NCBI GenBank assembly: GCA_035708525.1
Contig: DASSSH010000026.1
Location: 478 to 64,477 of the forward strand
Length of the DNA stretch: 64,000 bases
Direction: 5' to 3'
DNA from: Candidatus Methylomirabilota bacterium
GTDB lineage: Bacteria > Methylomirabilota > Methylomirabilia > Rokubacteriales > CSP1-6
Below the pieces are notes generated by a model, which was not told where the DNA came from, ran no database searches, and saw only the letters and a program-made list of their open reading frames with translations. Positions 1-49,860 of the stretch are shown piece after piece (position 1 is the stretch's first letter; every line of letters starts with the position of its first letter). Both the position numbers and the translations under genes were made by a program.

Positions 1-252
1 CTTTACGAAAAAGGCCATACCTTGCTCTCGGTCTTCATGGTCCCGGCCTCGGCGGCCGGCACCGAGCTGACGGGCAAGCGCGTTCCGTATGGGGGTCGCG
101 AGTACATCACGGCGGAGCGCAAGGGCTACCGCACGGTGTCGTGGACCGATGGGCAGACGGTCTACGGACTGGTGTCTCTCCTCGACTACGATGCTCTGCT
201 CGAGTGTGCCGATCGGCTCCGCGCTGAACGCGCACGCGAAGCGCGGCTGTAG
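1..252 (+). CDS. anti-sigma factor, C-terminal fragment (5' end lies outside the window)
   Basis: Frame 1 is open from the window edge to TAG 250-252. The motif GYRTVSWTDGQTVYGLVSLLDYDALLECADRL resembles the C-terminal end of zf-HC2/ChrR-type anti-sigma factors. Confidence 0.5.
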   Translation, partial: LYEKGHTLLSVFMVPASAAGTELTGKRVPYGGREYITAERKGYRTVSWTDGQTVYGLVSLLDYDALLECADRLRAERAREARL

Positions 253-1366: not shown

Positions 1367-1956
1367 CCGCCCTCGAGGAGCTCGCCGCCCTGCTCGCAGA
1401 GCTCGAGCGGGCGCGCACATCCATCATGGCCCTGGCGCGTGGCAACTGCGCGCAGGAGCCCTGGAGGCTCTATCCGGGCGAATACGGGATCTTCGACCGC
1501 AAGACGCATAGCCAGTTCTACTACCACTCGCACGAAGGTGCCCGGCACGAGGCCGGCCACTTTCACACTGTCCGCCTCTTCACCGATCGCTCGGTGCATC
1601 TGGTGGCCATCTCCATGGCCGAGACCGGCTGGCCGCAGGCGCTGTTCACCGTCAACGGTTGGGCCATCGGTGACGCCTGGGAACCACCGGAGACGCTCAA
1701 GCAATACATTCGCCGATTCCACATCGGGCCGGGCCGAGGGCCCGCGCCACTGGTCCGGTTCATCAACCTGATGTTTGAGGCCTTCACCCTCGAAATGGAG
1801 CAGCTTCAGGACGACAAGGAGCGTGTGCTGCGGGCTTACTGCGCCGCCCATCCGGGGAAGGATCCCCTCCAAGACTGGTCGCTGGAGATCCTGAGCCGGG
1901 TCGAGATCGACATGAAGGCCCGTCTCGCCGGGCCGGCAGAAGTGGTCAGGCCTTGA
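1363..1956 (+). CDS. hypothetical protein with a His-rich motif (YYHSHEGARHEAGHFH), possibly metal-binding
   Basis: The GTG start overlaps the upstream stop (GTGA at 1363-1366). Third-position GC is coding-like. The protein sits between the DUF3179 gene and the TlpA-like gene, with overlapping junctions on both sides. Confidence 0.65.
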   Translation: MTALEELAALLAELERARTSIMALARGNCAQEPWRLYPGEYGIFDRKTHSQFYYHSHEGARHEAGHFHTVRLFTDRSVHLVAISMAETGWPQALFTVNGWAIGDAWEPPETLKQYIRRFHIGPGRGPAPLVRFINLMFEAFTLEMEQLQDDKERVLRAYCAAHPGKDPLQDWSLEILSRVEIDMKARLAGPAEVVRP

Positions 1957-2516
1957 TCCGCGCACGGATCCTCGCCGTGCTCGTCGGGGTGGTCGCGCTC
2001 GGCGGGGTCTTGCAAGTGGCCGCCGTGGGCCCGGATCCGACGCTCGGGGCGGATCTCTGGCGGGTCGCAGGCATCGCGCGGGCCGGTCGCCAGGTCGCCG
2101 CGCCGTCGTTCCAGCTGCAGGATATCGCCGGGAACCGGGTCGAGCTGCGCCAGCTCCGCGGGCGAATCGTGCTGGTCTACTTCTGGGGCTCGTGGTGACC
2201 GCACTGCACGAGGGAGTTGCCCTCGGTGGATGGGCTGCACGAGAAGCTGGCGCGAGAAGGGCTCACCGTTCTCCTCGTGAACATCGGGGAGACCCGTGAG
2301 ACCGTGGTCCGGGCCCTGGCGTCGCGCCGCTACACAGCCCCCGTGTTCCTCGACTCGAACGGCAAGACCAGCGAGTCCTATCGCGTCGCAGGCACCCCCA
2401 CGGTGTTCATCATCGGTCGGGACGGGATGATCCTCGGGAGTGCCGTGGGCCCTGGCCCCTGGGCGGAACCGGCCGGGCGCGCGCTGCTCGAAGCGCTGCT
2501 CCGCGGTCGAACGTAA
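1953..2516 (+). CDS. TlpA/ResA-like thiol:disulfide oxidoreductase, selenocysteine-containing (UGA 2196-2198 read as Sec)
   Basis: ORFs 1953..2198 and 2217..2516 are in the same frame. The junction reads VLVYFWGSW-[TGA]-PHC-TRELPSV, the thioredoxin-fold WCxxC site. There is an N-terminal membrane anchor and a C-terminal AGTPTVFIIGRDG motif. The TTG start overlaps the upstream TGA (TTGA). Confidence 0.8.
2204..2229 (+). promoter_or_regulatory. putative bacterial SECIS hairpin for UGA 2196
   Basis: CGAGGG-AGUUG-CCCUCG at 2209-2225. It can be extended by 4 pairs with a bulged A at 2208. The loop A lies 19 nt from the U of UGA. Confidence 0.6.
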
Positions 2517-2560: not shown

Positions 2561-3514
2561 TCAGTCGCCGGCCGCGCGGAATCCTCGCCAGGCGAGCCGG
2601 TGCTTCCGGAAAAAGAACGCGAGCATGGCGACGGCGGATAGTAGATTACCGATCAGAATGGTCCACCAGGCCAACGCTTCCAGCAGCCACTCGGCCAGCG
2701 CCGCGACCAACCCGATGAAGAAGACCTCGAAGCAGCAGAAGAGCATGACGAAGGCGTAGAGCAGGCGCGGCTCGCGGTCGGCCAGCGCCAGCAGTCCTGC
2801 GGCGGCCCAGCCGAAGGCAACGAAGGCTGCGCCGTGCACCACGGTGTACTTGGCGACGGCCGGCACCGTGACGGTCAGGGCATTGACGTCCCGTAGTCCG
2901 TCGAAAAGCGCGGCGCCGAGCAAGGCCGGAGTGCGCAATGGCCGGCCAGCCGCCAAGTCGTAGAGCAGAAACCACACCGCCACCGTCACCGCGCCCAGCA
3001 GCCCGGCCATGAAGCCTTCCCTAGTCGCGCCCGTCCATGGGCCCAGCAGCGCGCGTCCGAGCGCGCGATGCCCGACGAAAAAGTACGCGAGCATCCCGGC
3101 GGCGGCGAGCAGATTGGCCGCCAAGATTGCCCACCAAGCCACTTCGGTCAGGACCGGGTGAGCCAGCCAGACCACGAGAGCGAGAGACAAGACCTCGAAG
3201 CACATGAGACCGATGAAGAGCACGAGCAGCCGGCTCGGGTGAGTTTGGGCTGAGGCGATGAGATACGCGATCAGCACCCCGATCATCGCGAAGACGACGC
3301 CGTGCAGCACCGTGTATTGGAGGACCAGGCCGGGCGACGTGGACACCGCCCCAGGGTCGGTCGCGCCCTGGAGCGCGGCAGCGCCTAGCACAGCGGGCGT
3401 GCGAAAGGGATGCCCGCGCGCCGCATCAAGGATCAAAAACCATACGGCGACGACTGCGGCGCCGATCATGCCGCCGATGACGCCTTCACGAACGAAGCGG
3501 TGTGAGAGCGCCAT
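2561..3514 (-). CDS. integral membrane protein with an internal duplication (two ~150-aa halves)
   Basis: ATG 3514 is preceded by an AGGAGG ribosome-binding site (RBS). Both halves share REG..G..GA..VAVWFL..D.A.G.P.RTPA.LGAA ... CFEV ... WW.IL..NLL.A..MLA.FF..HR. Confidence 0.75.
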   Translation of the reverse strand: MALSHRFVREGVIGGMIGAAVVAVWFLILDAARGHPFRTPAVLGAAALQGATDPGAVSTSPGLVLQYTVLHGVVFAMIGVLIAYLIASAQTHPSRLLVLFIGLMCFEVLSLALVVWLAHPVLTEVAWWAILAANLLAAAGMLAYFFVGHRALGRALLGPWTGATREGFMAGLLGAVTVAVWFLLYDLAAGRPLRTPALLGAALFDGLRDVNALTVTVPAVAKYTVVHGAAFVAFGWAAAGLLALADREPRLLYAFVMLFCCFEVFFIGLVAALAEWLLEALAWWTILIGNLLSAVAMLAFFFRKHRLAWRGFRAAGD

Positions 3515-3668
3515 TGAGCCTCCTGTGTTGGTGCCCAGGGCGATGTCGGATGGGACCGCTAACAAAACAGGAAACCGGGTGATCTACCTACTTATTCCTC
3601 TGAAAACCGAGCGCCGGCTGGGAATACGAGCGCCGCCAGGGGAGTTGTCCGGATGAGGAGGACGAGCC

Positions 3669-3788
3669 ATGAAGATCCTACCGTTGGTTGCCCTGTTCCT
3701 GGCTGTCGCGGCTCCCGTTTATGCTTTTCACGACAAGCCCCCGGACATCCAGGCCCCCCTCAGCGCGGACGATATCCAGGCTCCGTGA
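3669..3788 (+). CDS. small secreted peptide (39 aa), hypothetical
   Basis: A GAGGAGGA RBS lies about 7 nt upstream. The product is MKILPLVALFLAVAAPVYA-FHDKPPDIQAPLSADDIQAP, a signal peptide followed by a DIQAP repeat. It is too short for the ORF track. Confidence 0.3.
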   Translation: MKILPLVALFLAVAAPVYAFHDKPPDIQAPLSADDIQAP

Positions 3789-3851
3789 GGTCGAGTTGCC
3801 TTCGCACCGGATCTCCCGGGTGGCGTTTGTTCGCGTGCCCACGCGAATGTT

Positions 3852-4190
3852 TCAAGACGCGGAGCGGGCCAGATACGAGGTAAGCCAGTAGAGCGAGATG
3901 TAGACGATGACCATCGCGACGGCCACGGTGAGGAGCAGATGCCATTGGGCTTGCGCGCCGCGCAGACTGCAGGCGTTCCGGCGGCGCAGGATGGCCATCA
4001 CGCCTAGCACGGCCAAGATAAGGGCCGCGCCGCGGAAATACCACCCGTAGCCGTAGTAGAGAGTGTTGCCCAGGCTGATCGCGAAGGACGCCGAGGCGAG
4101 CCCAAGCAGGACCAACACGACGGGGCTCACGCAGCAGGAGATCCCGAGCAGGCCAGCCAGCAGGCCGAGCTTGAGACCCGTCTTGTCCAT
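3852..4190 (-). CDS. small membrane protein with a vicinal Cys-Cys in TM1 (MerT/MerF-like)
   Basis: MDKTGLKLGLLAGLLGISCCVSPVVLVLLG followed by further TM helices. The ATG overlaps the DUF547 stop (TGATG at 4188-4192). Confidence 0.6.
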   Translation of the reverse strand: MDKTGLKLGLLAGLLGISCCVSPVVLVLLGLASASFAISLGNTLYYGYGWYFRGAALILAVLGVMAILRRRNACSLRGAQAQWHLLLTVAVAMVIVYISLYWLTSYLARSAS

Positions 4191-4870
4191 CAGCGCAATC
4201 CCGCGGAATGGCTCGCCGATCGCTCCGGCAGCTGCCAGTCGTACTCCCGCCAGGTGACGCGGTCGAGCCCGCCTGCGAGGACCGTCCGCCTGACCGGACC
4301 GTCCTCGAGGTGGTCGGCGAGGAAGCCCACGAGCCCGCCTGGCCACTGGGCGAAGTCGGCGGCGAACCATTGGAAGATGGGCGTGGCGACCAACCGCTCC
4401 TTGTCCAGCGTCACCTCCCGGGTCACGAAGCCCCGCGTCGCCGCGTCGAGCTGGTCGTGCACGTGGACGCTGTCGTAGTGCTGCAGGGGCGGGCACGATC
4501 GCGCGCCGCAGTCGATGGCGAAGTGGATCCGGGGATCAAGGTCCGATATCACGTGCGCCAGACGCGGGTCGTCAGGCGAGAACGGTGGCGCGCCCGAGAG
4601 CGGATTGGGCCGGTTGCCGCGGAGCACCCCATGCTCGATGTCGTTGGCCGAGAACTCCAGCCCGCCGATGCGAGCGCGAATACGGTCGAAGAAGTCCGGG
4701 ACCTCCCAGACCGTCTGCCGGATCCCGAGGGCTGCGAGGCCCCCGGTGACCAAATCATTGTAGGCGTTGATCCAGAACGCGAGCCGCTCCCCACGTGTCG
4801 CGAGGCCGGCGAGCGGCGGGGCGGAAAGGTCCCTCAGTACCACGGCAACCATTAAACCAAACCGCGACAT
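4190..4870 (-). CDS. DUF547 domain-containing protein
   Basis: Motifs ERLAFWINAYN, IEHGVLRGNRPNP and DPRIHFAIDCGARSCPPL are typical of DUF547. Confidence 0.8.
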   Translation of the reverse strand: MSRFGLMVAVVLRDLSAPPLAGLATRGERLAFWINAYNDLVTGGLAALGIRQTVWEVPDFFDRIRARIGGLEFSANDIEHGVLRGNRPNPLSGAPPFSPDDPRLAHVISDLDPRIHFAIDCGARSCPPLQHYDSVHVHDQLDAATRGFVTREVTLDKERLVATPIFQWFAADFAQWPGGLVGFLADHLEDGPVRRTVLAGGLDRVTWREYDWQLPERSASHSAGLR

Positions 4871-4949
4871 CGCCTATTCCCGGTGCTTGACGGGCAGGCC
4901 ACGGTTGATGCGGTGCCGGCACGGGCGTGCGAGACGGGCGATTTTCCTC

Positions 4950-4980
4950 TTGACCTTGCCCCAAGGGGCCGGGTTTAGGC
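4950..4980 (+). promoter_or_regulatory. MerR/CueR-type promoter-operator (TTGACC, 19-bp spacer with dyad, TTAGGC)
   Basis: CTTGACCTTGCCCCAAGGGGCCGGGTTTAGGCT closely resembles, from memory, the E. coli copA promoter CTTGACCTTCCCCTTGCTGGAAGGTTTAACCT. The dyad ACCTTGCCCC/GGGGCCGGGT matches at 8 of 10 positions. The -10 element ends 7 nt before ATG 4988, so the transcript may be leaderless. Confidence 0.55.
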
Positions 4981-4987
4981 TGCGGTC

Positions 4988-5410
4988 ATGGGACGAGATG
5001 GCCTGCTGATCGGTGAGGTGGCGAAGCAGAGCGGCGCAAGCCGGAAGGCGCTGCGGCTGTATGAGACCGCGGGTATCCTTCCCGCTCCCCGCCGCACCGG
5101 GGCGGGCTATCGCGTGTACGGAGCCGACACGCTGGCGCTCCTCTCGTTCGTCCGGCGGGCGCAGCGACTCGGCTTCTCCCTGGAGGAGATCAAGGAGATC
5201 GTCGCCATCCGGCGAGCGGGACGCGCTCCATGCCCTCACGTCCGTGAGCTTGTCCGACGGAAGACCGAGGAACTCGACCGGCGGCTCACGGACCTGATGG
5301 AGGTGCGTGCTGGCCTTCGAGCCCTGGTGAAGGGCTGGCGCTCTTCGGGGCAGGGCCGCGCGGCGGTCTGCCCGCACATCGAGCGCGGCACTGGTCAGAG
5401 GGGGAGGTGA
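4988..5410 (+). CDS. MerR family (heavy-metal/CueR-like) transcriptional regulator
   Basis: N-terminal HTH LIGEVAKQSGASRKALRLYETAGILP..R...GYR.Y, a coiled-coil dimerisation helix, and two CPH motifs (APCPHV, VCPHIE). Confidence 0.9.
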   Translation: MGRDGLLIGEVAKQSGASRKALRLYETAGILPAPRRTGAGYRVYGADTLALLSFVRRAQRLGFSLEEIKEIVAIRRAGRAPCPHVRELVRRKTEELDRRLTDLMEVRAGLRALVKGWRSSGQGRAAVCPHIERGTGQRGR

Positions 5411-5416
5411 GAAGTG

Positions 5417-5557
5417 ATGCCTTGGAAGAAGGGTGAGGTGTACAGGTGCCCTGACCCCAACTGCGGGTGTGAGGTCGCGGTGACGAGAGAGCCGAGGCCT
5501 GGGATGGGAGGCGATCGGGCACCGGCCTGCTGCTGCGGCAAGACCATGACGAAGTAG
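5417..5557 (+). CDS. small Cys-rich desulforedoxin-like metal-binding protein (46 aa)
   Basis: MPWKKGEVYRCPDPNCGCEVAVT...APACCCGKTMTK matches the Dx pattern VY.C..CG..V.V...CCG..M. A GGGGGAGG RBS is present. The gene is too short for the ORF track. Confidence 0.55.
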   Translation: MPWKKGEVYRCPDPNCGCEVAVTREPRPGMGGDRAPACCCGKTMTK

Positions 5558-5583
5558 AACGTCCAAACAAGGAGGGATAGAGG

Positions 5584-5754
5584 ATGGACAGCCTGAAGAT
5601 GTCGCTGTGCCCGGCGTGTACCGCGTGCCCTGAAGTCGAGATCGCCGGGGACGAGGTCAGGATCGGCGAAACCGGCAACCTTGCCGTGCTGAAGCGAGAC
5701 GAATGGAACGTGCTGGTAGACCTGATCCAGGCGGGCCAGCTGTCGAAGCTCTGA
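5584..5754 (+). CDS. small hypothetical protein with a CPACTACP motif (56 aa)
   Basis: An AAGGAGGG RBS lies 8 nt upstream. The product is MDSLKMSLCPACTACPEVEIAGDEVRIGETGNLAVLKRDEWNVLVDLIQAGQLSKL, with high third-position GC. Confidence 0.45.
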   Translation: MDSLKMSLCPACTACPEVEIAGDEVRIGETGNLAVLKRDEWNVLVDLIQAGQLSKL

Positions 5755-5985: not shown

Positions 5986-6480
5986 ATGGCGAGAGCGGGA
6001 AATCGAATCCTCGACAGCGGCGAGGTGCTGCCGACAATCGCCATGGACACCGTTGCCCATGAGCGAATCAGCGCGCCAGAGTGCTTCGGAAGCGGCTGGG
6101 GGGTCTTCCTCATCTACCGCGCCCACTGGTGACCATACTGCAAGCAGCAGTTAGCTGCCTTCGAGCGTGCGCTGCCAAAACTCCAGGATGAAGGGATTAC
6201 CGTCGTAGGGGCGTCCACTGACGCGCTGGAAAAGGCCAAAGAGACAGTAAGAGAACACGCCCTCTCCTTCCCCATCGGCTATGGGCTCCCGCTCCGAGAG
6301 ACTGCGGCAACCCTAGGCACGTTCTACGAGGAGCGCCGAGGCATCTTGCAGTCTACCGGGTTCTTGATCAAGCCGGACAAGACGATCGCGGTCGCGCAGT
6401 ACAGCTCAGGACCCATCGGTCGCTTGGTCTGGCAGGACGTCCTCGGTCTGGTTCAGTTCTATAAGAAGCAGGCGAAATAG
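5986..6480 (+). CDS. peroxiredoxin-like (AhpC/TSA, PRX-like2-type) selenoprotein (UGA 6130-6132 read as Sec)
   Basis: A GAAAGGAG RBS precedes ATG 5986. The junction reads GVFLIYRAHW-[TGA]-PYC-KQQLAAFERALPKLQDEGITVVGASTD. The frame then stays open for 115 more codons to TAG 6478-6480 (…FPIGYGLP…SGPIGRL…). The downstream half is absent from the ORF track because it has no start codon. Confidence 0.8.
6142..6161 (+). promoter_or_regulatory. putative bacterial SECIS hairpin for UGA 6130
   Basis: AAGCAGC-AGUUA-GCUGC(C)UU, a stem with a bulged C. The loop A at 6149 lies 19 nt from the U of UGA. Confidence 0.55.
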
Positions 6481-6517
6481 CGATTCGGCCTACGAACCGG
6501 AGGCACGGGACCTGCTC

Positions 6518-6862
6518 ATGACCGCGATGGAGTGGGACTGCTGCCGGCACGGGGAAGAGACCCGTCTGACGTTTCAGTTCGCAGGTCGATCGGGGTCGGT
6601 TCGCAAATGCTGGTGGTGTGCGCTCGTGCACCCGCCCATGCTCTGGCGGTCCGTGAAGATTGGGCTTGTGGTAGGGAGCGTTCTGGCCGCCATCAACCAT
6701 GGCGGCGTCCTGGTGAGTGGCGAGCTGACCTCTGGCGTAGCCTGGAAGATCGGGTTGACCTATCTAGTGCCCTTTGTCGTGGCAACGTGGAGCGCCCTCG
6801 CGGCGAGTCGGATCTCCTCCGTCGCCGAGCCACGCGGTCGAGGCTCGGGTCCGGGCACATAA
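6518..6862 (+). CDS. NrtS-like (nitrate/nitrite transporter NrtS family) small membrane protein with a Cys-rich N-terminal extension
   Basis: The core LWRSVKIGLVVGSVLAAINHGGVLVSGELTSGVAWKIGLTYLVPFVVATWSAL matches NrtS-family sequences. The N-terminus carries CC..H and CWWC. Confidence 0.65.
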   Translation: MTAMEWDCCRHGEETRLTFQFAGRSGSVRKCWWCALVHPPMLWRSVKIGLVVGSVLAAINHGGVLVSGELTSGVAWKIGLTYLVPFVVATWSALAASRISSVAEPRGRGSGPGT

Positions 6863-6958
6863 GGTCATGACGGAGAAACCTCATCGAAGAGAGTTGACGC
6901 CGCCGTGACAAACCAGCGCAGTGTCCGTGGGAGGATGGAGCACAAAGGAGGTTTCGCG

Positions 6959-7441
6959 ATGCGACGCGGACTGATCGCGGCAGTCCTCTTGGGCCTGGGC
7001 GCGACCGTGAGCTGGGCCGCGACGCCGGCCCCGACCTTCATCTTGCCCCTCATCCAGGGCGGTAAGGTGTTCGATTCCAAAGCCGAGATCGGCAGGCGGG
7101 TCCTGGTTGTCCGCTTCCAGGCCTCCTGGTGACCCACCTGCGTGCAGGAGTCTCCTGCATTCGAGAAAGCCTACCGGAAGTACAAGACGCGTGGCGTCGA
7201 GTTCGTGGGCGTCCAGGTGCAGGACGAGGAGGCTGACGCCCGGCGGTTCCTCAAGGCTCACCAGGCGACCTATCCCGCAGGGCTCGATCCCGATCTGGCT
7301 ATCGCCAAGCGCTTCGGCTACACAGCGACGCCTCTGACCGTCATCATTGACCGTCAGGGCAACATCGCCGCGCGCCAGTTCGGGCCGGCGGACGACACCT
7401 GGATCGCCGCCCACCTCGCCCCGTTGCTCAAGCCCAAGTAG
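6959..7441 (+). CDS. TlpA-like periplasmic thiol:disulfide oxidoreductase, selenocysteine-containing (UGA 7130-7132 read as Sec)
   Basis: AAAGGAGG RBS, then the signal peptide MRRGLIAAVLLGLGATVSWA. The junction reads RVLVVRFQASW-[TGA]-PTC-VQESPAFEKAYRKYKTRGVEFVGVQVQD. ORFs 6905..7132 and 7142..7441 are in the same frame. Confidence 0.8.
7142..7160 (+). promoter_or_regulatory. putative bacterial SECIS hairpin for UGA 7130
   Basis: UGCAGG-AGUCU-CCUGCA at 7143-7159. The loop A at 7149 lies 19 nt from the U of UGA. Confidence 0.6.
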
Positions 7442-7513
7442 GGACTACGGCTTCAGCACGATCTTCATCGGGCGGTCGGTCGGTTCCAATTCGACCCCGC
7501 AACCAAGGCATCC

Positions 7514-7553
7514 AAGGGGTGAGCGAGGTGATCGCTAACCCCTTCGTGTTTTC
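7514..7553 (+). terminator. intrinsic terminator-like hairpin after the TlpA-like gene
   Basis: AAGGGGUGAGCGA-GGUGA-UCGCUAACCCCUU followed by CGUGUUUU. It lies in the gap between convergent genes. Confidence 0.5.
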
Positions 7554-7606
7554 TCCTGCCAGTTTGCCCCAAACCTTCCCGGATTGTCCGCCTGTCGAGC
7601 TGACCC

Positions 7607-8545
7607 TTATCCCGTGGAGTCTCGAATGGACGGCAGGACCTCGTGGGCGAAGCGCTCGATCTGCTCCAGCCGTTGTGGCCAGCGCGGCACCATGAATTGA
7701 AGCGCGATGTGCTCCACCCCGATCCTGCGATAGGCGGTGAGCGCCTTGACGAGCTGGGTCGAATCGCCGATCAATCGGTCCTCTTCCTGGGGCACGGGCT
7801 CCCGCGTGAGCTCGATGGGGAGACAACACGCCAGGCTGATCTGGCCGGGGTCTCTGCCTTGCTTGACCGCCCAGCTCCGCACGTTGTCGAACCGGGCGGC
7901 CAGCTCGCGCGGCGTGATCCGGACGAAGTAGGGAAACCACGCGTCTCCATACACGGCCGCCCGACGCTGGGCTCGCGCCCCTTCGCCGCCCACCCAGATC
8001 GGGATCCGGGGCCTCTGAAAGGGCTTCGGCGAAAAGCCGATCTCCTGAAAGCGGTAGTACCGGCCGTCGAACCGGGGCCGTTCTTCGGTCCAGACCCGGT
8101 TCACGACGTCGAGCTGTTCATCGGCGACGGCGCCACGGTCCGTGAACGGAGCCCCGAGCGCGCTGAACTCCTCGAGCATCCAGCCGACGCCCACCCCCAG
8201 GATCAAGCGCCCGAGTGAGAGGTGGTCGATCGTGGCGGCGATCTTGGCCCAGTAGAGAGGATGGCGATACGGCATGACCAGGACGCTCATCCCGAGCAGA
8301 ACCCGTCGCGTGCAGCCCGCCAGGAAGGCGAGACAGGTCAGCGCCTCCAGGAACGGAACATCAGGGGGAACGATGAAGCGCTGGTCCGCGCTGTACGGGT
8401 AGGGGGTCTTGATCTCCCACGGCGTGACGATCCGATCGGCGGCCCACACCGAGTCAAAGCCCAGGGCTTCGGCCCGATTCGCCGCCTCCGTGAGGACGCC
8501 GCTCGCGGCTCTGCCCGAGATCGGGAGAAAGACACCGACCTTCAT
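7607..8545 (-). CDS. LLM-class (luciferase-like) F420/flavin-dependent oxidoreductase
   Basis: MKVGVFLP..., LGFDSVWAADR, LGRLILGVGVGW, RPRIPIWVGG. Confidence 0.9.
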   Translation of the reverse strand: MKVGVFLPISGRAASGVLTEAANRAEALGFDSVWAADRIVTPWEIKTPYPYSADQRFIVPPDVPFLEALTCLAFLAGCTRRVLLGMSVLVMPYRHPLYWAKIAATIDHLSLGRLILGVGVGWMLEEFSALGAPFTDRGAVADEQLDVVNRVWTEERPRFDGRYYRFQEIGFSPKPFQRPRIPIWVGGEGARAQRRAAVYGDAWFPYFVRITPRELAARFDNVRSWAVKQGRDPGQISLACCLPIELTREPVPQEEDRLIGDSTQLVKALTAYRRIGVEHIALQFMVPRWPQRLEQIERFAHEVLPSIRDSTG

Positions 8546-47973: not shown

Positions 47974-49860
47974 TTACCGGACGGGCGTTGCGGCTGCCTC
48001 CTCGACGCCCAGCTCGGCCAGCTTGGTCGCCGTGGGCCGCCCGGTCTCGGGGTCCCAGCCGGCCATCTCGTAGTAGGTCCGGCGCGCCGCGAGGAACTCC
48101 GCGGGGTCGATCCGCTGCCCCTGGAGCGCGCCGTTGCCGATTCCCTCGTGCAGCCGCTGGGGCAGGAGATCGTCGGCGGGCGTGAAGCCCTCACGGCAGT
48201 TGAACAGCCGCGCGAGCGTGTTGTTCCGCTCACCCACCTTCATGAGCTCGTACAGGCTCATGTTCCAGCCCGTGACCGCGTTGATGTAGGCGACCATCGG
48301 CTCGAGCTCGAGCCCGTTGAGCGGAGTGCCGACGAAGTCGCACATGCCGACCGAGTTGTAGGCGCTCCAGACCTTCTGGGTTTCGAAGAAGGCCCGGACC
48401 TTCTTGGCGTCGAGCACCAGCGGGTCGAGGGGCTCGATAAGGCCCAGCGCCCCCAGCGGGTGCCCCTGCGGGTGGAAGCCCGCGTAGAGCGGGTCGTGAG
48501 GCGCCTCCATGTGATCGGCGCCCGTGGGCGACAGCGCGTAGGCCAGGGAGAGGCCCTTCTTGCCCCGCGGGTCGTGCATGGGCAGCTCCTGCCCCTTGAC
48601 GTGCAGCGCGAAGCGCTCGGCGCCCTTGCCGAGCTTGGCGGCGGCGCGCTTGACACCCTCGCCCAGCAGCTCGCCGATGCCCTCGCGCGTGCCGATGCGA
48701 TGGACCATCTGCACGACCGCCTCGGCGTTGCCCCATGTGAGGTCGATGCCACCGGTCATCTCCTTGGTGATGATGCCGTGCTCGTAGCACTCCATGGCGA
48801 AGGCGATGACGGCACCGGTCGAGATCGAGTCCAGCACGTACTGGGCGTAGAGCTGGTTGATCAGCGCAAGGGCGTTCAGGTCGCTGACGCCGCAGAGCGA
48901 GCCCGATGCCGCCAGCGTCTCGTACTCGGGCCCGCCGTACTTCGGGGTCACGCCCAGCTCCTTGACCTCCACCTCGCGCTTGCACGCCACGGCGCAGGCG
49001 TAGCACGTGCCGCGGTTGACGAGGATGGTGTCGCGCATCGTCTGGCCGCTGATCGCGCGGGCGCCCTCGAAGGAGCCGTCCCGGAAGTTGCGCGTCGGCA
49101 GGATCCCGCTAGCGTCGAGCGCCAGCACGGCGCTGGAGGAGCCGAGCTGGTGGAAGCGGTCCTTGGCCCGGTCGTAGTGCTCGCGGAACCAGACCAGCTG
49201 GCCCTTGGCCCGCTCCTTGTCCATGGCCACGGGCGGCTTCGTGCCGCGCACGACGACGGCCTTGAGGCGCTTCGCGCCCATCACGGCGCCGAGCCCGCCC
49301 CGTCCGTGGAAATGCTTGAGCTGGTTCACGATGGCCGCGAACCGCACGCCGCGCTCCCCGGCGACGCCCGTCTGCAGCACGCGGACGCGCTTGTCGCCTA
49401 GCTCCTGCTCGATCCCGTCCTGCACCTCACCGGAGAGCTGGCCCCAGTAGGCGGTGGCGTCGCGGAACTCGACCTTGTCGTCCTTGATCCAGAGGTAGAC
49501 GGGGGTCTTCGACGCCCCGCGGATGACGAGCCCGTCCCAGCCGGCCGCCCGCAACTCCGGGCCCCACCAGCCGCCCGCTTCCGACTCGCCGTAGCCGCCG
49601 GTGAGCGGGGACTTCGCGGCCGCCGTGTACCGGTTGGTGCCCGACAGCGACAACCCGTTGATGATGCTGGTCGTGAAGACCAGCACGTTGTCCGGACCCA
49701 GAGGATCCACGCCGGCCGGCATGTCGCGCAGCAGGATCCACGCGGCCAGCGCCCCGCCGCCCAGATACTTCCGCGTCACCGTCTCGGGGACTTCCTCCGT
49801 GCGGGTCTGACGCGTGGTCAGGTCGACGTGCAGGAGCTTCGCCGTGATGCCGGATGCCAT
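47974..49860 (-). CDS. aldehyde:ferredoxin oxidoreductase family (tungstopterin enzyme)
   Basis: The N-terminus LLHVDLTTRQTRTEEVPE...YLGGGALAAWIL, TGGYGESEAGGWWG and 628-aa length are typical of AOR. Confidence 0.9.
   Translation of the reverse strand: MASGITAKLLHVDLTTRQTRTEEVPETVTRKYLGGGALAAWILLRDMPAGVDPLGPDNVLVFTTSIINGLSLSGTNRYTAAAKSPLTGGYGESEAGGWWGPELRAAGWDGLVIRGASKTPVYLWIKDDKVEFRDATAYWGQLSGEVQDGIEQELGDKRVRVLQTGVAGERGVRFAAIVNQLKHFHGRGGLGAVMGAKRLKAVVVRGTKPPVAMDKERAKGQLVWFREHYDRAKDRFHQLGSSSAVLALDASGILPTRNFRDGSFEGARAISGQTMRDTILVNRGTCYACAVACKREVEVKELGVTPKYGGPEYETLAASGSLCGVSDLNALALINQLYAQYVLDSISTGAVIAFAMECYEHGIITKEMTGGIDLTWGNAEAVVQMVHRIGTREGIGELLGEGVKRAAAKLGKGAERFALHVKGQELPMHDPRGKKGLSLAYALSPTGADHMEAPHDPLYAGFHPQGHPLGALGLIEPLDPLVLDAKKVRAFFETQKVWSAYNSVGMCDFVGTPLNGLELEPMVAYINAVTGWNMSLYELMKVGERNNTLARLFNCREGFTPADDLLPQRLHEGIGNGALQGQRIDPAEFLAARRTYYEMAGWDPETGRPTATKLAELGVEEAAATPVR

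Follow-up and report, generated by a model that had tools for sequence, protein, structure and literature searches.

At the locus studied here, translation of the forward strand meets a single in-frame TGA at 7130-7132 within 6959..7441, and the public NCBI annotation records only a 99-aa C-terminal fragment (P0001 and seven similar entries), with a 57-aa ORF called 5' of it. The closest database entry, P0001, is annotated as 'TlpA disulfide reductase family protein'. The question is whether this TGA ends a gene or stands inside one, as a codon for selenocysteine (Sec). The latter had been proposed in the first-pass annotation of the window, by which we mean the whole stretch of 64,000 nucleotides that was analysed. 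Our analysis arrives at the same reading with a probability of about 0.85: 6959..7441 would encode a 160-residue extracytoplasmic TlpA/ResA/CcmG-like oxidoreductase with a U58-P-T-C61 active site, the UGA being decoded as Sec via a SECIS element.

Reading frame and protein family

By their coordinates and their translation, the two ORFs on either side of the TGA, 6905..7132 and 7142..7441, lie in one frame, and the junction between them reads RVLVVRFQASW-TGA-PTC-VQESPAFEKAYRKYKTRGVEFVGV (in its wider context RVLVVRFQASW-TGA-PTC-VQESPAFEK). Both points had been made in the first-pass annotation and both hold, as does its claim of a ribosome-binding site before a signal peptide, for which a Shine-Dalgarno-like AAAGGAGG was found (Table 1). 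In the first 20 residues of the product, MRRGLIAAVLLGLGATVSWA, the n-region is basic, the hydrophobic core spans 12 residues with a mean Kyte-Doolittle value of 2.35, and the end reads S-W-A. By-eye inspection found this n-h-c layout, with small residues at -3/-1, to be kept in Sec-type as well as Cys-type homologues. The layout of the signal peptide that had been claimed for the product is also seen in its orthologues, and the product is probably exported via this predicted peptide. A Tat signal was considered for the RR present and was rejected, the n-region having only three residues and one orthologue (L001) having RG there.

Table 1 Features of the 6959..7441 locus, of the two further W-U-P-x-C genes and of their surroundings (positions are those of the window)
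Feature	Position	Strand	Details	Basis
Full CDS, TlpA-like redoxin	6959..7441	+	160 residues including putative Sec58; stop TAG 7439-7441	translation
Peptide across the UGA		+	FQASW-X-PTCVQESPAFEK, X = codon 58	translation
Shine-Dalgarno-like AAAGGAGG	6944..6951	+	7 nt 5' of ATG 6959	read from sequence
Predicted signal peptide MRRGLIAAVLLGLGATVSWA	6959..7018	+	likely cleavage after SWA	by layout
Putative Sec58	7130..7132	+	UGA read as selenocysteine; N-terminal nucleophile position of UxxC	alignment with Cys homologues
Resolving Cys61 of U-P-T-C	7139..7141	+	TGC in all Sec-type sequences	equivalent to second Cys of ResA CxxC
cis-Proline of thioredoxin fold	7331..7333	+	Pro125 in ATPLTVIID; invariant column	aligned with ResA Pro
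SECIS-type hairpin GUGCAGGA-GUC-UCCUGCAU	7142..7160	+	8 bp, -10.4 kcal/mol	
Alternative fold of the hairpin	7143-7148/7154-7159	+	6-bp stem; loop AGUCU 7149-7153	
Paralogous TlpA-like gene, putative selenoprotein	1953..2516	+	TGA 2196-2198 (W-U-P-H-C), hairpin 2209-2225, loop AGUUG	
Prx-like AhpC/TSA-type UxxC gene	5986..6480	+	TGA 6130-6132 (W-U-P-Y-C), hairpin 6144-6158	
End of zf-HC2 anti-sigma gene	1..252	+	72% identical to L069	
Block of membrane-protein and DUF547 genes	2561..5754	-	membrane protein of 334 aa, internally repeated, without a Pfam match; MerT-like; DUF547	
Plus-strand genes of the same block	2561..5754	+	MerR-family regulator; two small ORFs, of which 5414..5557 is Cys-rich	

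Family searches were run on the translation with Cys in place of the in-frame stop. It matched the Pfam families Redoxin (PF08534; 1.4e-24, 87 bits against a cut-off of 26.6) and AhpC-TSA (PF00578; 2.3e-21, 76.5 bits against a cut-off of 26), and the best matches among solved structures were the thiol:disulfide interchange protein 3or5 (4e-15) and B. subtilis ResA (5e-15), as well as DsbE/CcmG proteins. The TGA codon aligns to the first Cys of WCxxC in the matched ResA/DsbE-type structures. Alignments with the homologues and with ResA show that three further residues of the ResA-type active site are kept, namely W57, E64 and the cis-Pro P125. These domains and structure matches confirm the TlpA-like redoxin identity given earlier to the gene. 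None of the NCBIfam equivalogs was reached, neither ResA (NF002854, 71 vs 170 bits) and TlpA (NF047696, 29 vs 230 bits) nor DsbE/CcmG (TIGR00385, 55 vs 123 bits; NF011941, 34 vs 359 bits). Because all these scores are below cut-off, the predicted product is placed in the broad TlpA-like/Redoxin group (cd02966), outside any characterised subfamily.

With ResA, Bradyrhizobium TlpA and E. coli CcmG-DsbE the product has in common the W-C-x-x-C-x-x-E motif, the cis-Pro and, by prediction, an N-terminal export or anchor sequence, and it differs from them in the predicted Sec that takes the place of the nucleophilic Cys. The P-T dipeptide of U-P-T-C is the one found in the CPTC motif of CcmG. Near 6959..7441 there are no genes for cytochrome c maturation and no Sco/Cox genes. 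Two other assignments were tried and rejected. The ResA-like WAxxUGC selenoprotein family (NF041054) is likewise TlpA/ResA-like, but it differs in its motif, which is W-U-P-T-C here, and in its 354-position model, against which the product scored 51 bits with a cut-off of 300. A peroxiredoxin proper would carry PxxxTxxC/U, and RFQASWUPTC has no PxxxT before the Sec position.

Conservation of the TGA codon and of a SECIS-type hairpin

Homologues with Cys at the active site are common in Rokubacteria. They are 164-175 aa long and align end to end with the 160-residue product, and in 34 distinct Cys homologues (53-64% identity) the TGA at 7130-7132 aligns with TGC or TGT, the first Cys of WCxxC, within the pattern VLVVRFQASWCK[VLA]CV. 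A scan of GTDB species representatives returned homologues of the Cys type only. The Sec-type clade was recovered from metagenome contigs, namely NCBI MAGs and Logan, JGI and ENA assemblies, and comprises 20 loci with 14 distinct sequences at 75-99% protein identity, all with TGA at the same codon. One of these loci (L005) comes from a separate assembly and is identical to the window, the TGA included. In the Sec-type loci the signal peptide and the mature N-terminus stand in frame 5' of the TGA, and the codon of Cys61 is an invariant TGC. The Sec-type sequences diverge by a dS of about 0.41, and their dN/dS is 0.15 over the 36 codons before the TGA and 0.25 over the 99 codons after it; such values on the two sides indicate that both halves are translated in one frame. 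The W-U-P-T-C recoding proposed earlier is thereby borne out, by a TGA that aligns with the Cys codon of 34 homologues and is kept, together with a hairpin 3' of it, in 14 sequences.

A neighbour-joining tree groups the 12 distinct Sec forms in one clade, whose sister is the Rokubacterial Cys clade. One contig (L045) carries both types on the same strand about 1.2 kb apart, a Cys-type gene with WCKVC (1976) and a Sec-type gene with W-U-T-T-C (3166). The monophyly of the Sec forms, combined with this Cys/Sec pair, points to one ancient change from Cys to Sec in a gene that had been duplicated, by which the Sec gene would derive from a Cys paralogue widespread in Rokubacteria.

The hairpin UGCAGG-AGUCU-CCUGCA noted in the first-pass annotation is present at 7143-7159, with 10 nt between the UGA and the hairpin, and it can also be drawn with a longer stem and a GUC loop (Table 1). 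Published criteria for bacterial SECIS elements (PMC13188914, Fig. 2) call for 3-9 nt in the loop and 4-16 bp in the stem, for a G at the first or second loop position with U or G next to it, for 16-37 nt from the UGA to the loop and for an energy of at most -7.5 kcal/mol. The 7142-7160 hairpin falls within every limit: its loop is GUC or AGUCU, its stem 8 or 6 bp and its spacing 17 or 16 nt, depending on the fold, and its energy is -10.4 kcal/mol. The stem GUGCAGGA/UCCUGCAU is invariant in all Sec-type sequences, and one loop base varies (U or G). Synonymous change is absent from codons +2 to +11 (0 of 10, against 82 of 126 elsewhere; p ~3e-5), and this is the sole 10-codon stretch among 131 with no synonymous variation in the Sec-type sequences. 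The hairpin holds three consecutive rare codons, TCT (or GCT)-CCT-GCA, each of which makes up 3-6% of the codons for its amino acid in this genome. The Cys homologues have no conserved hairpin; their best energies average -3.2 kcal/mol, against -10.4 kcal/mol here, and lie at scattered positions.

Taken as a single sequence, the hairpin is unremarkable for DNA of 68% GC: its folding energy is not significant against dinucleotide shuffles (z = -1.19), 23 of 200 of which fold as well. Its significance is therefore to be sought in the conservation of the TGA, in the synonymous invariance and in covariation. A search of the window with Rfam models, at their gathering thresholds, matched no family. 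In most orthologues a lower stem of 5 bp (CCUGC/GCAGG, e.g. L001 6022-6027) can extend the putative SECIS. This lower stem has been lost in the window through the change of a codon from CAG to AAA (Gln to Lys) at 7163-7168, which leaves the upper stem-loop.

The arrangement resembles that of the E. coli fdhF SECIS, the bacterial archetype, in which a short stem-loop likewise adjoins the UGA on its 3' side and has GU in the apical loop. Counted from the U of UGA, the GU of the 7142-7160 loop lies at nt 21-22, and that of fdhF at nt 23-24. Compared with fdhF, the hairpin here has no bulged U, and the window copy has no lower stem. It is known that the upper stem-loop by itself, placed some 10-11 nt 3' of the UGA, is the minimal element required.

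Companion W-U-P-x-C genes, decoding and rival explanations

The window holds two further genes of this kind. The first, 1953..2516, with the context YFWGSW-TGA-PHC, had been named in the first-pass annotation as a paralogue with the same recoding geometry, and this relation is upheld, with hairpins in the same register, although the two products are only 29% identical. All its orthologues are annotated as C-terminal fragments. The second, 5986..6480, is a third UxxC gene that the earlier annotation did not mention. This candidate selenoprotein gene encodes a predicted cytoplasmic Prx-like protein, which matches AhpC-TSA (5.8e-18) and has no signal peptide, and it reads VFLIYRAHW-TGA-PYC-KQQ, followed by the hairpin GCAGC-AGUUA-GCUGC in the same register as those of the other two genes. 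The TGA is kept in orthologues of both 1953..2516 (60% protein identity) and 5986..6480 (71%) in four loci, L069-L072. The stretch 6001..8000, within which two of the selenoprotein genes lie, has the lowest GC of the window (0.636 vs ~0.68), and GC3 is low, especially in the Prx-like gene 5986..6480.

The three W-U-P-x-C genes are not orthologous. In all of them UGA-CC is followed, in the same register, by a stem of 6 bp with an A-G-U/G-Y-N loop, but the stems differ in sequence. A UGA followed by C is the weakest termination context. When nine distinct sequences are aligned without gaps, 98% of cells pair, compared with 31-59% in slid controls, and compensatory changes occur in four of the six pairs; as the stem is invariant within orthologues, this covariation comes from three gene families, i.e. 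from few independent events. A covariance model was built from the hairpins of the three genes, so that its training sequences match by construction. Across the 447 kb searched it matches UGA-type genes (5986..6480, a training sequence, scores 50.9 bits). The window yielded no element beyond those of the three genes. The informative outcome is that for the Cys-type loci, where a single weak match of 18.8 bits was obtained and no other. In two loci a TlpA-like gene, 31% identical to the 1953..2516 product, adjoins the Sec-type gene on its 5' side (L038, 355-816; L039, 2142-2603), and it is probably a Cys form, because the covariance model gave no match there.

Genes for the decoding machinery were sought in the sequences at hand. 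ARAGORN, run on the window and on 58 loci, detected no tRNA. Neither the window nor any locus had a tblastn match to SelA, SelB or SelD (approximate E. coli queries), and Pfam found no Sec machinery among the ten largest genes of the window. Taken together, selA, selB, selD and tRNA-Sec were found neither in the 64-kb window nor in 72 loci, a result that covers those stretches only. For the phylum, Sec machinery is supported by published work only: 63 selenoprotein genes are predicted in a Methylomirabilota MAG (PMC13188914), Sec-type hydrogenases occur in Methylomirabilota, and selABCD is found in ~90% of Sec-type genomes overall (PMC13582414).

The one serious rival to Sec insertion retains the SECIS/SelB route and has Cys inserted at the UGA, either by a tRNA(ReC)/SelC*-type tRNA or by Cys-charged tRNA(Sec) at low selenium, which would yield an ordinary CxxC TlpA-like reductase. 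Decoding of this kind at a SECIS-directed UGA is documented: tRNA(ReC)-like tRNAs decode UGA as Cys given a downstream SECIS and occur in ~17% of Sec-type genomes, and in the view of the same authors bioinformatics cannot separate Cys from Sec insertion (PMC13582414). The sequence data here fit either residue as well. We nevertheless consider Cys insertion improbable, since a plain TGC would give that reductase free of cost, and L045 already has a Cys paralogue on the same contig. Moreover, tRNA(ReC) is enriched in UxxU-type genomes, against ~2.3% in other Sec-type genomes (PMC13582414). The retention of TGA and SECIS across a dS of ~0.4 is also easier to explain if the product differs from the Cys form.

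Less probable still is a TGA that acts as a true stop, in a decaying pseudogene or between two genes, one for a 57-aa exported peptide and one for the 99-aa fragment. The public gene calls described above divide the locus in just this way, and no Sec machinery was found in the window. A stop would, however, have had to persist in 14 distinct sequences, about a third of whose synonymous sites differ, with purifying selection on both halves. The 99-aa part, for its own part, has no active-site motif, no Shine-Dalgarno sequence and no fold of its own. A hairpin after the TGA that is conserved at synonymous sites and built with rare codons, and the same architecture in two other genes, also argue against termination. 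That the TGA is a sequencing or assembly error, or a sense codon in a lineage that reads UGA as Trp or Gly, has a negligible probability. One database entry for an orthologue (P0006) does show W at this position (FQASWWATC), probably through a gene call under genetic code 4, but independent assemblies from many samples agree on TGA. In the window TGA ends 22 of the 32 confident genes, and a search for in-frame TGA with coding signal on both sides, together with tblastn of the protein against the window, gave three convincing cases, all of them W-U-P-x-C. With TGA as a usual stop and no more than these three recoded cases, the genetic code is standard and UGA is not reassigned.

Under the preferred reading, that of Sec insertion, the hairpin at 7142-7160 would act as a bacterial SECIS and recruit SelB-GTP-Sec-tRNA(Sec) to the ribosome through putative SelB binding, so that the UGA at 7130-7132 would be bypassed as a stop and Sec inserted at codon 58, a residue assigned by alignment with the Cys homologues. 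The precursor would then be exported through its predicted N-terminal signal peptide. Outside the cytoplasm, the selenolate of Sec58 may attack substrate disulfides, or oxidised or metal-bound Cys, and Cys61 would resolve the mixed intermediate to give a selenenylsulfide, which could be re-reduced by a membrane electron carrier.

Relation to known families and genomic neighbourhood

Selenoproteins of the UxxC Prx-like (PF00578), Redoxin (PF08534) and TlpA-like (cd02966) families have been catalogued since 2006-2008, the same families are listed in a 2026 review, and the Cys-to-Sec conversion of thiol oxidoreductases is a documented route (PMC1794560, PMC2398784, PMC13188914). Methylomirabilota are reported to be rich in selenoproteins (PMC13188914). 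The gene described here shares with the catalogued families the Pfam domains, the Sec-first UxxC, the downstream SECIS and the presumed Cys-to-Sec origin. Features of its own that set the Rokubacterial clade apart from them are the predicted signal peptide, the dipeptide of U-P-T-C and the link to ECF-sigma/DUF3179/DUF6969. The gene is a new or at most newly noticed member of these families, as its clade may coincide with one of the catalogued exemplars (WP_010940744.1, MGB1650493.1, HEU0032618.1) or represent a separate conversion event. As UxxC redoxin selenoproteins have long been catalogued, the mechanism is a conventional one, and no new mechanism is revealed.

Public annotation truncates 6959..7441 and its orthologues, as well as those of the two neighbouring selenoprotein genes, and therefore the redox capacity and the selenium dependence of Methylomirabilota MAGs are undercounted. 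The Sec and Cys forms of one predicted exported reductase, which sometimes lie on one contig, offer a natural pair in which to study the benefit of selenium to an extracytoplasmic thiol-disulfide enzyme.

The main interest lies in the association of the three selenoprotein genes with an uncharacterised ECF-sigma/DUF3179/DUF6969 module. At the start of the window, the end of the anti-sigma gene (Table 1) is followed by DUF3179, DUF6969 and then the first TlpA-like selenoprotein gene, 1953..2516, which is the last of the operon. In L069-L072 the operon runs ECF sigma, anti-sigma, DUF3179, DUF6969, TlpA-like(U), Prx-like(U) and, further on, CMD/AhpD-like. In the window, opposite-strand genes seem to break up this operon: they form a block that comes after the first TlpA-like gene. 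The MerT-like membrane protein of this block has a CC motif and a weak match (0.0014), and the gene content of 2561..5754 hints at metal or thiol stress. Orthologues of 6959..7441 have DUF3179, DUF6969, MerT-like, DUF547 and a 114-aa membrane protein within a few kb, in shuffled order, and in L001 the gene and the ECF sigma operon are arranged divergently. This arrangement suggests that 6959..7441 may belong to a common stress module with ECF-sigma/DUF3179/DUF6969.

A more far-reaching proposal, which we put forward tentatively and regard as possible rather than probable, is that the three W-U-P-x-C genes are the selenium-dependent parts of one conserved envelope and redox-stress module of soil Rokubacteria under ECF sigma control. 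Its members would include the zf-HC2 anti-sigma, DUF3179, DUF6969, the MerT-like membrane protein, DUF547 and CMD/AhpD-like, with DUF3179 and DUF6969 as partners or substrates. If this were true, several selenoproteins would form one regulon, with action on either side of the membrane, and this in a lineage that is not considered a classic anaerobic selenium user. Elsewhere in the window, a malic enzyme gene is adjoined by one for an aldehyde:ferredoxin oxidoreductase (47974..49860, minus strand; AFOR_N and AFOR_C, 1e-127), an enzyme that is typical of anaerobes and usually contains tungsten or molybdenum.
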